DNA of 64,000 bases from contig OZ024760.1 in NCBI GenBank assembly GCA_964016885.1, positions 8,370,001 through 8,434,000 of the forward strand, read 5' to 3'. Positions within the stretch are counted from its first letter, which is position 1; every line of letters begins with the position of its first letter. The DNA is from Eledone cirrhosa. Lineage: Eukaryota. Under the pieces are notes generated by a model. That model saw only the letters and a list, made by a program, of their open reading frames with translations, did no database searches and was not told the DNA's origin. Positions 6,824 through 57,144 of the stretch are shown here, one piece after another. Both the position numbers and the translations under genes were made by a program.

Positions 6824-6859
6824 TCTTCTGATGAAGGACCAGCGTCCGAAACGTTAAGA
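6824..6859 (+). ncRNA. Minimal hammerhead ribozyme motif in a Penelope-like terminal-repeat fragment (~6730-6950)
   Basis: TCTT CTGATGA A GGAC-cagc-GTCC GAAA CG TT AAGA: both core boxes, 4-bp stem II, 4-bp stem I, palindromic AACGTT at stem III. Confidence 0.65.
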
Positions 6860-6974
6860 CCCTCTTCCTGCTATATCAAGCGTTAACCTAATATATCCCT
6901 TCCATATACTGTACCGATTGTGTTGTTATTTCTGTTTACTTTTTACATACATATATATGCACACATAATTAAAT

Positions 6975-39814: not shown

Positions 39815-39887
39815 CGACCATGATGGGACTTGAACCCACAATGTTCGGCTCCGGAGGCCGACGCCTTATCCATTAGGCCGTACAACA
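39815..39887 (-). pseudogene. tRNA-Arg(CCG) pseudogene or tRNA-derived head
   Basis: Minus strand: GGCCTAATGGATAAGGCG TCGGC-CT CCG GA-GCCGA ACATT GTGGG-TTCAAGT-CCCAT CATGGTCG. D, anticodon and T arms are intact, but the 5' acceptor strand TGTTGTA does not pair with CATGGTC. Confidence 0.8.
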
Positions 39888-40645: not shown

Positions 40646-40716
40646 TATTTTATTATGCGCATTTCAAAAAGAAATATCACCATGGGATGTTATTTGCGTT
40701 CTCATCAGATAAAATA
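40646..40716 (-). ncRNA. Type-I hammerhead ribozyme with intact core
   Basis: Minus strand: TATTTTAT CTGATGA [long imperfect stem II, loop CCAT] GAAA TGCGCA TA^ ATAAAATA; perfect 8-bp stem I, palindromic stem III. Confidence 0.8.
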
Positions 40717-47844: not shown

Positions 47845-48725
47845 TTAACCCTTTAACCATTTACATTACTCTATATATACTATTGTATTTTCACAGTAAA
47901 CACTTTACCTCACATAATATTCACATTACTCTATATATACTATTGTATTTTCACAGTAAACACTTTACCTCACATAATATTCACATTACTCTATATATAC
48001 TATTGTATTTTCACAGTAAACACTTTACCTCACATAATATTCACATTACTCTATATATACTATTGTATTTTCACAGTAAACACTTTACCTCACATAATAT
48101 TCACATTACTCTATATATACTATTGTATTTTCACAGTAAACGCTTTACCTCACATAATATTCAATTTACGGGATTTTAATAAAGTACCAGTAATGTACTG
48201 GGTTATTGCTGGCCTTGTACCAAAAGTAGAAACAATTATTTATTTTGAAAACAATACCTTAACATAAGTATGGGCAGCTGGTTATGGCCAGTTTGAATAG
48301 AAAGAGGTGAGAGAATTCTGGCTGGATATCATCATCATTTCATCATTTCATTTTACGTCCGCTTTTCCCTGCTTGCAAGAGTGGGACGGGAACTGAATCT
48401 GGCTTGATGCCCTTCCTAACACCAACCTCATTTATAGTGAGTGTTGGGTGCTTTTTTGCCGTGGCACCTCCACGACCAGTTTACAGTGGAATGATAGGGA
48501 CTGAGGTGTTGTTTCCTTGAGCAAGACACTTTATTTCACATTGCTCCAGTTTACTCAGTCCCTATCATCCCATTTCTACAGCTGAGTAAACTGGAGCAAT
48601 GTGAAATAAAGTGTCTTGCTCAAGGAAACAACACATCACCCGGTCTGAGAATTGAACTCACAACCTTTCGATTGCAAGGCCAATGCTCTAACCACTAAGC
48701 CATGTGGGCCAATTTAAATGCTAAT
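47845..48725 (-). mobile_element. piggyBac-type MITE with five 60-bp repeats, a SINE B fragment and a SINE A insertion
   Basis: TTAA-ccctttaaccatttac start; near-perfect 60-bp units at ~47863-48162; SINE A at 48328-48706. Confidence 0.8.
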
Positions 48726-49147: not shown

Positions 49148-52100
49148 GGTGCTGGTGGCTGTGGTGGTGGTGGTGGTAGTGGTGGCTGTGGTGGTGGTGA
49201 TGGTGGTGGTGGTGGCTGTGGTGGTGGTGGTGGTGGTGGTGGTAGTGGTGGCTGTGGTGGTGGTGGTGATGGTGGTGGTGGTGGTGGCTGTGGTGGTGGT
49301 GGTGGTGGTAGTGGTGGTGGTGGTGGTGGTAGTGGTGGCTGTGGTGGTGGTGGTGATGGTAGTGGTGGTGGTGGTGGTAGTGGTGGCTGTGGTGGTGGTG
49401 ATGGTAGTGGTGGTGGTGGTGGTAGTGGTGGCTGTGGTGGTGGTGATGGTGGTGGTGGTGGTGGTGGCTGTGGTGGTGGTGGTGGTGGTAGTGGTGGTGG
49501 TGGTGGTGGTAGTGGTGGCTGTGGTGGTGGTGGTGATGGTAGTGGTGGCTGTGGTGGTGGTGGTGATGGTAGTGGTGGCTGTGATGGTGGTGATGGTAGT
49601 GGTGACTGTGGTGATGGTAGTGGTGGTGGTGGTGGTAGTGGTGGCTGTGGTGGTGGTGGTGGTAGTGGTGGTGGTGGTGATGGTAGTGGTGGCTGTGATG
49701 GTGGTGATGGTAGTGGTGACTGTGGTGGTGGTGATGGTAGTGGTGACTGTGGTGATGGTAGTGGTGGCTGTGGTGGTGGTGATGGTAGTGGTGGCTGTGA
49801 TGGTGGTGGTGGTAGTGGTGGCTGTGGTGGTGGTGATGGTAGTGGTGGCTGTGGTGGTGGTGATGGTAGTGGTGACTGTGGTGATGGTAGTGGTGGCTGT
49901 GGTGGTGGTGATGGTAGTGGTGGCTGTGATGGTGGTGGTGGTAGTGGTGGCTGTGGTGGTGGTGATGGTAGTGGTGGTGGTGATGGTAGTGGTGGCTGTG
50001 GTGGTGGTGATGGTAGTGGTGGCTGTGGTGGTGGTGGTGATGGTAGTGGTGGCTGTGGTGGTGGTGATGGTAGTGGTGGTGGTGGTGGTAGTGGTGGCTG
50101 TGGTGGTGGTGATGGTAGTGGTGGCTGTGGTGGTGGTGATGGTAGTGGTGGTGGTGGTGGTAGTGGTGGCTGTGGTGGTGGTGATGGTAGTGGTGGTGGT
50201 GATGGTAGTGGTGGCTGTGGTGGTGGTGATGGTAGTGGTGGCTGTGGTGGTGGTGATGGTAGTGGTGGCTGTGGTGGTGGTGGTGATGGTAGTGGTGGCT
50301 GTGGTGGTGGTGGTGGTGGTAGTGGTGGCTGTGGTGGTGATGGTAGTGGTGGTGGTGATGGTAGTGGTGGTTGTGGTGGTGGTGATGGTAGTGGTGGTGG
50401 TGGTGGTGATGGTAGTGGTGGTGGTGGTGGTAGTGGTGGCTGTGGTGGTGGTGATGGTAGTGGTGGTGGTGGTGGTAGTGGTGGCTGTGGTGGTGGTGAT
50501 GGTAGTGGTGGTGGTGATGGTAGTGGTGGCTGTGGTGGTGGTGGTGGTGGTGGTGGCTGTGGTGGTGGTGGTGGTGGTAGTGGTGGCTGTGGTGGTGGTG
50601 ATGGTAGTGGTGGTGGTGATGGTAGTGGTGGCTGTGGTGGTGGTGATGGTAGTGGTGGCTGTGGTGGTGGTGGTGGTGGTAGTGGTGGCTGTGGTGGTGG
50701 TGATGGTAGTGGTGGTGGTGATGGTAGTGGTGGCTGTGGTGGTGGTGATGGTAGTGGTGGCTGTGGTGGTGGTGATGGTAGTGGTGGTTGTGGTGGTAGT
50801 GGTGGCTGTGGTGGTGGTGATGGTAGTGGTGGTGGTGATGGTAGTGGTGGCTGTGGTGGTGGTGGTGATGGTAGTGGTGGCTGTGGTGGTGGTGGTGGTG
50901 GTAGTGGTGGCTGTGGTGGTGGTGATGGTAGTGGTGGTGGTGATGGTAGTGGTGGCTGTGGTGGTGGTGATGGTAGTGGTGGCTGTGGTGGTGGTGATGG
51001 TAGTGGTGGCTGTGGTGGTGGTGGTGATGGTAGTGGTGGCTGTGGTGGTGGTGATGGTAGTGGTGGCTGTGGTGGTGGTGGTGATGGTAATGGTGGCTGT
51101 GGTGGTGGTGGTGATGGTAGTGGTGGCTGTGATGGTGGTGGTGATGGTAGTGGTGGTGGTGATGGTAGTGGTGGCTGTGGTGGTGGTGATGGTAGTGGTG
51201 GCTGTGGTGGTGGTGATGGTAGTGGTGGTGGTGATGGTAGTGGTGGCTGTGGTGGTGGTGATGGTAGTGGCGGCTGTGGTGGTGGTGATGGTAGTGGTGG
51301 CTGTGGTGGTGGTGGTGATGGTAATGGTAATGGTGGCTGTGGTGGTGGTGGTGATGGTAGTGGTGGCTGTGGTGGTGGTGATGGTAGTGGTGGTGGTGAT
51401 GGTAGTGGTGGCTGTGGTGGTGGTGGTGATGGTAGTGGTGGCTGTGGTGGTGGTGATGGTAGTGGTGGCTGTGGTGGTGGTGGTGATGGTAATGGTGGCT
51501 GTGGTGGTGGTGGTGATGGTAGTGGTGGCTGTGGTGGTGGTGATGGTAGTGGTGGTGGTGATGGTAGTGGTGGCTGTGGTGGTGGTGGTGATGGTAGTGG
51601 TGGCTGTGGTGGTGGTGATGGTAGTGGTGGTGTGGTGATGGTAATGGTGGCTGTGGTGGTGGTGGTGATGGTAGTGGTGGCTGTGATGGTGGTGGTGATG
51701 GTAGTGGTGGCTGTGATGGTAGTGGTGGCTGTGGTGGTGGTGATGGTAGTGGTGGCTGTGATGGTGGTGATGGTAGTGGTGGCTGTGATGGTGGTGGTGA
51801 TGGTAGTGGTGGCTGTGGTGGTGGTGATGGTAGTGGTGGCTGTGGTGGTGGCTGTGGTGGTGGTACTGATGGTAGTGGTGGCTGTGATGGTGGTGGTGAT
51901 GGTAGTGGTGGCTGTGATGGCGGTGATGGTAGTGGTGGCTGTGGTGGTGGTGATGGTAGTGGTGGCTGTGATGGCGGTGATGGTAGTGGTGGCTGTGGTG
52001 GTGGTGATGGTAGTGGTGGCTGTGGTGGTGGTGATGGTAGTGGTGGCTGTGGTGGTGGTGGTGATGGTAGTGGTGGCTGTGATGGCGGTGATGGTAGTGG

Positions 52101-52352
52101 TGGCTGTGGTGGTGGTGATGGTAGTGGTGGCTGTGATGGTGGTGTTAGTGGTAGTGGTGGCTGTGGTGGTGGTGATGGTAGTGGTGGCTGTGGTGGTGGT
52201 GATGGTAGTGGTGGCTGTGGTGGTGGTGGTGATGGTAGTGGTGGCTGTGATGGTGGTGATGGTAGTGGTGGCTGTGGTGGCTGTGATGGTGGTGATGGTA
52301 GTGGTGGCTGTGGTGGCTGTGATGGTGGTGGTGGTGGTGGTGTTAGTGGTAG
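49148..52352. repeat. 3.2-kb (GGT)n-based mosaic array
   Basis: Recurring gtgatggtagtggtggctgtggtggtg; source of the 851-aa and 1099-aa homopolymeric ORFs. Confidence 0.97.
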
Positions 52353-53911: not shown

Positions 53912-53934
53912 TATATATATATATATATATATAT

Positions 53935-54128
53935 ATAGGAACGAGTAGGACCCCGACGGCTGAGCTCAAGCCGTTTCGACGGCTAATTCTGGACCAGAAT
54001 TAGACGTCGAAACGGCTTGAGCTCAGCCGTCGGGGTCCTACTCGTTCCTATTACCCACTCTACTACCCTAAGTATTGAGTACTTTGGTGCGTTATGGTCC
54101 ACCTGGTTCCTTACCACATTTCCTTCGT
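53935..54128 (+). mobile_element. TA-flanked palindromic element carrying the 3' half of a GUC hammerhead (copy 1)
   Basis: 58-bp arms around base 53993 with one mismatch; each arm contains GAAA CGGCT-tgagctc-AGCCG TC^GGGGTC; a ~77-bp tail is shared with copy 2. Confidence 0.75.
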
Positions 54129-54145
54129 TATATATATATATATAT

Positions 54146-54418
54146 GATGTGTTGTTTCCTTGAGCAAGACACTTTATTTCACATTGCTCCAGTTTACTCA
54201 GCTGTAGAAATGAGATGATAGGGACTGAGGTCCCTAAAATTCCACTGCAAAGTGGTCGTGGAGGTGCCACGGCAAAAAAGCACCCAGCACTCACTGTAAA
54301 TGAGGTTGGTGTTAGGAAGGGCATCCAGCTGTAGAAATCAAGCCAGAATCAGTTCCCGCCCCACCCTTGCAAGCAGGGAAAAGTGGACGTAAAATGAAAT
54401 GATGATGAATGATGATGA
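54146..54418 (+). mobile_element. 5'-truncated SINE A
   Basis: Begins in the CORE-like domain and ends in (tga)n. Confidence 0.85.
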
Positions 54419-54437
54419 TATATATATACACACACAT

Positions 54438-54482
54438 AGGGCTTTCCTGATGATTTCCTTTGAATGAAATAGTTCTAGTCCT
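54438..54482 (+). ncRNA. Hammerhead-like motif; an inverted partial copy lies at 55020-55063
   Basis: agggctttc CTGATGA tTTC-cttt-GAAt GAAA tagttc tagtcct; stems are weak. Confidence 0.4.
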
Positions 54483-54593
54483 GTAGAAGCCATTTCTATA
54501 TTAAATCTTGTATATACTCTACTGTATTGAGCACCTTACTAACTGTGGTTACTCCTCATTGAACCTGATACGCACAAACACAAGTGTGTGAGC

Positions 54594-54624
<31 letters not shown>

Positions 54625-54644
54625 CGTGCGTGAGTGAGTGAGTG

Positions 54645-54712
<68 letters not shown>

Positions 54713-55061
54713 TGCGTGTGAGTGTGTGTGTGTGTGTTTATGTGCCATAAGATAGCAAGTCAACAGAGAACAATAAAATAAGTCCCTGACATGGAAAATA
54801 TAAACCTTGATAATAATCAACTAAAACCCAATTAAGGAAGTGCTCCAGCATAGCTTAGTCTCACTTCGACACACAGACATAAAGGTGTTCTGGCATAGCT
54901 GCAGTCTCAATGTATATATATACATACATACACTCACATATACATACATACATACATATGTACATACACACACAACATTATATATATATATACATATATA
55001 TATAGTTTTAATATAGATGAGATTCTACAGGACTAGAACTGTTTCATTCTTTAGAAATCAT

Positions 55062-55093
<32 letters not shown>

Positions 55094-55098
<5 letters not shown>

Positions 55099-55313
55099 AA
55101 CCAGTAAGACCCCGACGGCTGAGCTCAAGCCGTTTCGACGGCCGACGGCTAATTCTGGACTAAAAAAATATTTTTTAGTCCAGAATTAGCCGTCGAAACG
55201 GCTTGAGCTCAGCCGTCGGGGTCTTACTGGTTCCTATTGCCCACTCTACTACCCCAAGTATTGAGTACTTTGGTGCGTTATGGTCCACCTGGTTCCTTAC
55301 CACATTTCCTTCG

Positions 55314-55314
<1 letters not shown>
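55094..55314 (+). mobile_element. TA-flanked palindromic element carrying a half hammerhead (copy 2)
   Basis: Palindrome 55094-55237 with a longer centre (ctggactaaaaaa-ata-ttttttagtccag) and the same tail as copy 1. Confidence 0.75.
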
Positions 55315-55380
<66 letters not shown>

Positions 55381-55699
55381 AACGATCGACTTTCGTCAAA
55401 TCGGACCGAGGGAACAATGTTTCCGTTGGTCTTTCCAATTGCTAATACTATCTATCGGTCGCAACTCCAGGTAGAAGGAGCGACGTGAAATAAAGTGTCT
55501 TGCTCAAGGACATAATGCATCGCCTGGTCCAGGAATCGAACTCACAACCTTACGATTGCGAATCCAATTCTCTAACCACTCAGCCACACGCCTTCACTTA
55601 TATATATAATATATAAGTGAAGGCGTGTGGCTGATATATATATAATATATAATATATATATAATATATAAGATCAAAAGATGGTTAAAGGAGTTCCATG

Positions 55700-55770
55700 T
55701 ATTTTATTATGCGCATTTCAAAAATAAACATCATCATGCAATAATATTTGTGTTTTCATCAGATAAAACA
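55700..55770 (-). ncRNA. Type-I hammerhead ribozyme with intact core (paralogue of 40646-40716)
   Basis: Minus strand: TGTTTTAT CTGATGA [stem II, loop GCAT] GAAA TGCGCA TA^ ATAAAATA. Confidence 0.8.
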
Positions 55771-56051
55771 GGAGAACCATCTTTTGATCTTATATATTAT
55801 GTATACTCCAGTCCTACAAACTGTAGAGTGCTTCTTATCCGATATCTGCATTGCTTTATTGTACTACAATAAAACTCACCTCCTACATATATATTTAAAT
55901 ATATATATATATATATATACATGGAAAGTTATATTTAAATTGTTGGGTTACAACTAGTAAATATTTATAACTGATATAAAAGCACTCGACAAGTATTTGG
56001 AGTATATTTACGATATTAAATAAATGGAAACTATATTTATAAAACCATATT

Positions 56052-56117
56052 TATTTCATTATATATATTTCAGGGATATCATATTAACAATATGCTATGC
56101 CTTCCTCAGACAAAATA
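56052..56117 (-). ncRNA. Hammerhead ribozyme in the left arm of the inverted repeat
   Basis: Minus strand: TATTTTGT CTGAGGA aggcatagcatatt-gtt-aatatgatatccct GAAA TATATA TA^ ATGAAATA. Confidence 0.75.
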
Positions 56118-56278
56118 CAATATAAAATAAACAGTTTTATAGATAAATAGATTTGACATACCGTACAACATCGACTTGTATTTGAAAAGTTGAACTGCCA
56201 ATTCAACTTTTCAAATACAAGTCGATGTTGTACGGTATGTCAAATCTATTTATCTATAAAACTGTTTATTTTATATTG

Positions 56279-56344
56279 TATTTTGTCTGAGGAAGGCATA
56301 CCATATTTTTAATATGATATCCCTGAAATATATATAATGAAATA
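56279..56344 (+). ncRNA. Hammerhead ribozyme in the right arm of the inverted repeat
   Basis: TATTTTGT CTGAGGA aggcataccatatt-ttt-aatatgatatccct GAAA TATATA TA^ ATGAAATA. Confidence 0.75.
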
Positions 56345-56731
56345 AATATGGTTTTATAAATATAGTTTCCATTTATTCAATATCGTATATATATATATAT
56401 ATATATATTATTGTTAAGAGGCAGCGATGGTGACGCTTATTCATTGTTTTCGCCAACAACCCCCCCCCCCCCATGTACATATGGATGTAAATGGAAATTG
56501 CCTTATTACTGGCACTAGAATCGAAACTGGGTCACCACCCACCACCTACCACCTACCACCAGCCGACCCACCCACCATCCTTATATCCAGCCATCCCAGT
56601 TCCAATCTAGCCCACTATTGATTATTTTCCTTCAAGCATGCACCAGGTCCACTCACTCCGCCACTCAGTTATAGAGCAATAAAAAAAAAAAAAAAAAAAA
56701 ATCTAGAATTTTTACTGTGTTTATATAGGTT

Positions 56732-57000
56732 ACCGCCGCCGCCGCGCCACTGCGACGACCACCACCACCACCGCCACTGCGACCACCACCACCACCACTA
56801 CCGCCGCTGCTGCTGCTGCTGCGACCACCACCACCGCCGCCGCCGCTGCGACCACCACCACCACCACCACCACCACCGCCGCCACTGCGACCACCACCAC
56901 CACCACCACCACCACCACCGCCACTGCGACCACCACCACCACCACCGCCACTGTGACCACCACCACCACCACCACCACCACTGCGACCACCACCACCATC
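56732..57000. repeat. (CAC/CGC)n mosaic
   Basis: Seen directly. Confidence 0.9.
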
Positions 57001-57144
57001 CCATCGTCCTAATTTCTCTCACTTCTTTCCAACACTTATTAATAGCATTAAAAAAAAAAGACAAAGAAAACCAAGAAAAAGAAGGCCACCAATGAATGCC
57101 AGCCACCATCTCCATCTCTCTACATCAATGAATTTTATTAAGTG

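Follow-up and report, generated by a model that had tools for sequence, protein, structure and literature searches.

Palindromic stubs in (TA)n repeats of Eledone cirrhosa as probable head-to-head joins of two cDNAs from a candidate Penelope-like element

Introduction

Penelope-like elements (PLEs) of the Hydra clade include an octopus member, Hydra-1_Obim, and a start site inside the pLTR is described for Penelope and Chlamys-3 (Craig et al., 2021, PMC8557442, the latter in section 10); the portions of that paper used here also name the origin of the tandem and inverted ends of PLEs as an open question. For head-to-head PLE palindromes, self-priming on an antisense template is a printed hypothesis, as set out in the relevant part of Arkhipova et al. 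(2013, PMC3846280). Poseidon of Anolis (PAc) cuts and extends both target strands in vitro (Frangieh et al., 2024, PMC11167929). Its reverse transcriptase (RT) starts at two internal sites, which lie downstream of the hammerhead in the 5' part of its RNA and bound the tail. Among PLE hammerheads, the excerpts consulted of Cervera and de la Pena (2014, PMC4209133) describe variants with a U3-A8 core and with a base left unpaired at the 5' end of stem II.

Here we analysed two palindromes in a 64,000-nt stretch of DNA (the window) and their relatives in the same genome. Judged from their sequence, they are stubs of an EN+ Penelope-like element that has Hydra-clade motifs and targets (TA)n. The element is new within a known clade; inverted arms, tails and pLTR promoters were already known. 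In the openly accessible literature that was searched, we found no description of PLE stubs that are marked by a cap or resemble strong-stop products.

Results

Two palindromic copies in the window

Copy 1 is a 111-nt palindrome (53938-54048) with one mismatch, followed by a one-sided 80-nt tail that ends at 54128; its predicted fold reaches -110 kcal/mol (z = -21.7). Copy 2 comprises a palindrome at 55097-55234, centred on an A/T run, and a tail up to 55314. Both sit in (TA)n. Element positions are numbered with the A of TTTAGTCC as +1.

53912-53937, unstranded: (TA)n target left of copy 1; more runs at 54129-54146, 55067-55096 and 55315-55378
53938-53994, minus strand: tail-less arm of copy 1, element +58 back to +2, with its outer end abutting (TA)n
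53994-54048, plus strand: tail-bearing arm of copy 1, +4 to +58, sharing one C with the tail-less arm; CCTACTC subfamily
54009-54036, plus strand: hammerhead-like 3' half of copy 1 (GAAA, stem III, GTC ending at 54031, 3' strand of stem I), assigned from sequence and the three-way fold of a long relative
54049-54128, plus strand: 80-nt tail of copy 1, +59 to +138, running on into the 5' leader and ORF in full-length copies
55097-55164, minus strand: tail-less arm of copy 2, extending to -3; CTTACTG subfamily; 7 nt are duplicated in tandem at 55137-55143
55165-55173, unstranded: junction insert of copy 2, an A/T run; the same type of filler occurs in other copies
55174-55234, plus strand: tail-bearing arm of copy 2, -3 to +58; the putative RNA start (+1) is the A at 55177
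55235-55314, plus strand: 80-nt tail of copy 2

The original prediction read the right halves as the 3' half of a PLE hammerhead, and we agree as far as a hammerhead-like motif: the GAAA box, stem III, GTC and GGGGT are found in the right half of both copies, and neither carries a 5' catalytic box. The differing centres and the extra 7 nt in the left arm of copy 2 were also as described, the former as the A/T run and the latter as the duplication. Substitutions that had been taken as copy-specific and mirrored within each copy are instead subfamily markers. When 72 of the 78 short palindromes sampled below were compared (those with a complete left arm; six were left out), common subfamily variants were mirrored in 105 of 110 cases and rare variants in 6 of 88. 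A fixed A/C mismatch between the arms, apparent in the first 30 loci, was discarded as query ascertainment, C being present in 99 of 100 unbiased matches.

Rfam returned no hammerhead at gathering score in the window, and its only matches there were two tRNA-like ones at 39823-39879 and 48637-48709 (minus), probably SINE heads. Elsewhere in the window, a minimal hammerhead motif (CTGATGA...CCGAAAC) of another PLE-type repeat lies at 6828-6866. A long G/T-rich tandem array with 9-, 12- and 15-nt spacing occupies about 50000-52200, and an inverted related array lies at 56746-57003.

The parent element

Genome searches with arm plus tail recovered near-identical copies on many contigs; an exact pattern for tail-bearing ends matched 15,996 times genome-wide and a second pattern, for short palindromes, 10,369 times. 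Upstream of the same terminus, long relatives carry a 3' UTR and then an ORF with RT and an endonuclease of GIY-YIG type at the C terminus. In an intact element (G000:C1:11226-11232 kb), the ORF encodes 719 aa with YRDD and YIG motifs, the ATG lies 231 nt downstream of the stub edge, and the tail is the next stretch of the leader, contiguous with the ORF. The protein has RWR (in place of RWK), DKT, a CxCX5C linker, CNLC, CKH and a C-terminal EN. Its atlas neighbours are cnidarian and ctenophore proteins of about 700 aa, followed by further ones with RVT_1 and GIY-YIG; Pfam gave a sub-threshold RVT_1 alone (E 0.063; nothing at 0.01), and a PDB search of the ORF gave no significant match.

A TA run follows the tail in 94 of the 98 sampled loci, and other PLE features are present as well: a partial tandem pLTR (L132/L137, L097), an inverted 5'-truncated copy (78/98) and the one-sided tail. 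A hairpin MITE was rejected on the one-sided tail, the variable centres and the continuity with an RT ORF. The protein motifs, matched to the clade description in the consulted part of PMC8557442, point to membership of the Hydra clade.

A further PLE ORF, at L031 1543-4039, combines Hydra-like motifs with an insert rich in asparagine that precedes the endonuclease. This insert resembles the N-rich inserts of rotifer Penelopes.

Census of junctions

The census comprised 98 of the first 100 tail-bearing matches, all from the first 42 Mb of contig C1. The remaining two are tandem units inside L097 and were not given entries of their own; the search pattern required a tail-bearing arm reaching +10. 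It yielded 78 short inverted, 4 short one-armed and 16 long loci. The outer ends are fixed and lie 80 nt apart, at +58 for the tail-less and +138 for the tail-bearing arm, both just before TAT in the template. Copy 1 is typical in both respects: the outer end of its tail-less arm is common to 56 of 72 arms in the sampled loci, and the tail terminates at the same position in 82 of 98.

The inner ends are also confined. Among the short tail-bearing ends (82/98), 81 stop at -5 or downstream. The tail-bearing arm starts between -5 and +9 in 77 of the 78 short palindromes, and the tail-less arm ends between -6 and +8 in 69 of them, although the junction parser over-extends several arms, which several of the negative end positions reflect. 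The majority of arms stop short of +1 through trimming, and some extend as far as -4. The axes had been expected to cluster at the stem II loop. They do cluster, but in the 3' strand of stem II, mostly from -4 to +8 around the A of TTTAGTCC, whereas the loop lies at about -8 to -5 in folded long relatives.

According to the parser, the longer arm is the tail-less one in 18 of the 78 palindromes and the tail-bearing one in 40, with 20 equal or ambiguous; the sampling pattern is biased towards longer tail-bearing arms. By eye, the tail-less arm is at least 4 nt longer in L046, L056, L058, L082 and L113; it is 1-2 nt longer in copy 1 of the window and more than 1 kb longer in L063/L134, L103 and L132. 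One-armed stubs end at the same site, directly against (TA)n, in 711 matches (duplicates included).

At five places, two arms that both start from the edge face away from each other, with a TA run or 1-2 kb of other DNA between them; these may be twin products whose resolution involved no direct join:

G000:C1:172998110-172998154
C2:39779541-39779602
C1:158783479-158785732
C1:333914110-333915135
C2:211215-213443

The flanks of L002, L018, L029 and L046 hold older subfamilies of the same terminus, also palindromic and nested in the same TA runs; insertions of these subfamilies pile into one another's microsatellites.

The inner edge and an extra G

The arms share a sharp inner edge at TTAGTC/TCAGTC, with TATTTAAA at -29; from their consensus sequences, we take these to be initiator-like and TATA-like, respectively. 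In one set of junctions, the base before +1 that is found in neither template was G in 43, A in 3 and C in 2 (n = 48). In a second set (n = 42), it was G in 22, A in 1 and C in 19; one subfamily has C in the template. Part of the G counts in both sets can be put down to slippage on the adjacent TTCGACG, whose products make up about 9 of 100 rows. Among 34 loci in which both arms extend to +1 and two bases separate them, 26 have the complementary C at the end of one or both arms, 6 of these at both (p = 1e-4 against uniform). The cleanest test of the extra G is given by one-armed stubs on (TA)n, which have no partner arm: G precedes +1 in 14 of 84, against 3.1% G in these repeats, and the other 70 have T (54), C (12) or A (4). 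By eye, G occurs before +2 in about 16 of 100 rows and before +1 in about 15, and before +4/+5 in only 1. The similar counts at +1 and +2 would reflect either a heterogeneous start or an RT that adds C at any run-off end.

An extra terminal G is the signature of a reverse-transcribed cap in other retroelements. We infer from these sequence features that the edge is a transcription start and that the extra G is likely a reverse-transcribed cap. Contig sets, which cannot show RNA ends and whose depth is no copy number, have a roughly tenfold step in depth at +1 in two runs of one study. A splice acceptor at the edge was rejected, given that the arms include bases upstream of the AG and that the edge of a second family lacks an AG.

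At L097 (G000:C1:27009525-27010170), a short palindrome is followed by 257-nt tandem units that run from the edge to just past the ATG. The array is retrozyme-like, contains the 3' half of the hammerhead only, and its units restart at the same edge.

The hammerhead motif in long relatives

Non-palindromic relatives were expected to carry CTGAnGA. Long copies do carry a 5' half upstream of the 5' strand of stem II, but it reads ACCCC-(T/C)TGA(G/T/A)AA-G, that is, with a (T/C)TGAnAA box: the A8 form has 5,303 matches and G8 31, of which 10 are CTGAnGA. The core is U3·A8 in 75 and a mismatched C3·A8 in 25 of the first 100 matches. Assessed as a candidate type I hammerhead, the long form is predicted to form a three-way junction of stems I-III in which the boxes stay unpaired, no better than shuffled sequences (z = 0.41). 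A canonical hammerhead is thus absent from the pLTR of family 1 (A8), and the box of family 2 is canonical.

The 5' catalytic box lies at -43 and predicted cleavage at +41, within the arms. The absence of the box from the stubs is likely due to its position upstream of the putative RNA start, which would have kept it from ever being copied, and not to erasure. With the start site inside stem II, the front of the RNA would carry half a hammerhead, and a whole one would be present in the 3' repeat alone.

A second family as control

A stub of a second family lies nearby in the window:

55920-56393, unstranded: palindromic stub of the second family, with 195-nt arms, an intact CTGAGGA box in both arms and the tail on the left; arm start at 56194

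This family also has Hydra-clade motifs, its protein is 41% identical to that of the first over 396 aa, and its relatives L145, L148 and L150 have an intact-looking ORF. Among its 78 palindromes, the arms of the 50 listed end at the A of TTTC-ACTG (TCACT initiator-like). That edge is 90 nt upstream of the intact CTGAGGA box, and no pairing is predicted there. Lacking a hairpin and lying away from the box, it indicates that the edge follows the initiator-like site and not the ribozyme. In this family, a minority of loci (about 4 of 30) are short stubs, and the extra G is mostly ambiguous.

Short inverted arms around a minus-strand CTGATGA...GAAA, at 55655-55805 of the window, are probably a stub of a third PLE family; a related motif lies at 40708 (minus).

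Discussion

Taken as sequence evidence, these junctions make it probable that two cDNAs, primed on opposite target strands, each ran off the capped 5' end of the mRNA and were joined head to head. Both 3' ends of a cut (TA)n would prime in the leader of the element's mRNA at two RT start sites, and the resulting cDNAs of 58 and 138 nt would extend to the cap. Their ends would then be trimmed and joined through microhomology or end joining, with filler. The outer ends at +58 and +138 would be the counterparts of the two RT start sites seen in vitro for the anole PLE. Long copies could arise if priming took place at the 3' repeat or if the run-off cDNA jumped there. L132 is longer than unit length, and both L132 and the 257-nt units of L097 are what such a jump, made from the 5' end of the RNA, would produce; these forms would equally follow from read-through transcription or from priming at a 3' tail.

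Of the other explanations, the one that survives best keeps the join of two cDNAs unchanged. It takes the stop at +1 as real but not as a capped start: a processing site or a strong RT pause, where terminal-transferase activity added the C. In its favour, G is seen before +2 and not only before +1, and a predicted hairpin has its base at the edge of family 1, which also follows a pyrimidine tract that ends in AG. Against this, an initiator-like edge is found in two families whose proteins are 41% identical, one of them lacking structure at the edge; a TATA-like box lies at -29; G precedes +4/+5 in just 1 of 100 rows; predicted hammerhead cleavage falls inside the arms; and the arms keep bases upstream of the AG that splicing would remove. 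We consider this account unlikely.

The original prediction proposed that a tail-primed cDNA folded back on stem II, or on itself, and was copied into the mirror arm, erasing the 5' box, a route that resembles the self-priming proposed in PMC3846280. One part of it stands, namely that the palindromes were most likely built at insertion. The sharing of subfamily variants between arms also agrees with it, as do the six mirrored rare variants, the 14 of 78 junctions that have neither insert nor overlap, and the native hairpin just upstream of the edge. However, arms reaching -4 should then be separated by the native 4-nt loop, and none of the 78 junctions has it. A tail-less arm that is longer than the tail-primed arm cannot be a copy of that cDNA, and many copies have such an arm, three of them by kilobases. 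The extra C is also found at the inner end of tail-less arms, and on both arms; one-armed stubs end where the paired arms do; and family 2 lacks a hairpin. As a general route, snap-back is already contradicted, and its overall standing is poor.

We give no better prospects to later reduction or copying, whether by centre deletions in long palindromes or by a MITE- or SINE-like family amplified from a few masters. Palindrome centres are unstable, long palindromes exist (L015, 804 nt) and some junction types recur, but deletion would not halt at one site in two families or add a G, the same junction types occur across different subfamilies, the tail is at one end only and the edge is common to one-armed stubs. 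Later centre deletions could blur small arm asymmetries, not create a fixed edge. A fold-back artefact of library or assembly is barely credible: palindromes in (TA)n are artefact-prone and our appraisal rests on the assembly and contigs, but there are 82 rare one-arm differences across the 72 copies, the ends are fixed and element-specific, the tail is one-sided, and two weaker points agree, namely the +1 depth step in two contig sets and a fold-back contig of 60 nt, from the same arm, in a run belonging to a different study (contigs only; study P1 may be the source).

The head-to-head join of two cDNAs allows a broader and tentative proposal, about which we are somewhat doubtful: PLEs might be disguised LTR elements. 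A dimeric RT would prime twice in the leader, on both target strands; the cDNAs would run off the cap in the manner of a strong-stop product; an obligatory jump to the 3' repeat would rebuild the promoter; and failed jumps would leave thousands of cap-marked stubs that map the start. The hammerhead would be split, so that only the 3' copy could cleave.

Ten thousand young junctions form a natural experiment that favours two sense-templated cDNAs, and they tie the two start sites found in vitro to a genomic structure. With the intact 719-aa protein, products of 58 and 138 nt and a cap-derived C are predicted. Such stubs are liable to be filed as MITEs.

Comparison with known systems

In L1 twin priming, two primers on opposite target strands give non-overlapping inverted segments. 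The minus-strand strong-stop of LTR elements is a short cDNA made off the capped 5' end that then jumps to the terminal repeat; it is tRNA-primed and not integrated. Unlike in either, both cDNAs here would copy the same stretch and integrate.

The closest match is the Hydra clade as described in the consulted portions of Craig et al. (2021, PMC8557442), which has in common with our element a single ORF with RW(R), DKT, CxCX5C, and CxxC and CxH around conserved E and N, as well as (TA)n targeting, an inverted 5'-truncated copy and a one-sided tail. Compared by description, tails are 30-40 nt there and 80 nt here; canonical hammerheads were observed in families of that clade, whereas the core here is U3·A8/C3·A8; and about two thirds of the pattern-sampled ends here are fixed-length stubs. 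PLE hammerheads in the excerpts of Cervera and de la Pena (2014, PMC4209133) have the same U3-A8 core and unpaired stem II base; in our putative ribozyme, by contrast, stem II is long and would contain the start site, and stem III has 5 bp.

The Penelope of Adineta vaga, in the part of Arkhipova et al. (2013, PMC3846280) used here, has the same head-to-head palindromic junctions and optional tail, and its pLTR likewise holds TATA plus an initiator-like TCACT motif. There, the junctions are attributed to self-priming with an antisense template; those here fit two sense-templated cDNAs. PAc (Frangieh et al., 2024, PMC11167929) likewise has an AT-rich target, extension of both strands and two start sites; inverted joins and run-off at the start of the RNA are not discussed in that paper. 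Its start sites lie in the ORF and have no homology to the target, whereas those of the Eledone element would lie in the leader, with TAT in common with the target.
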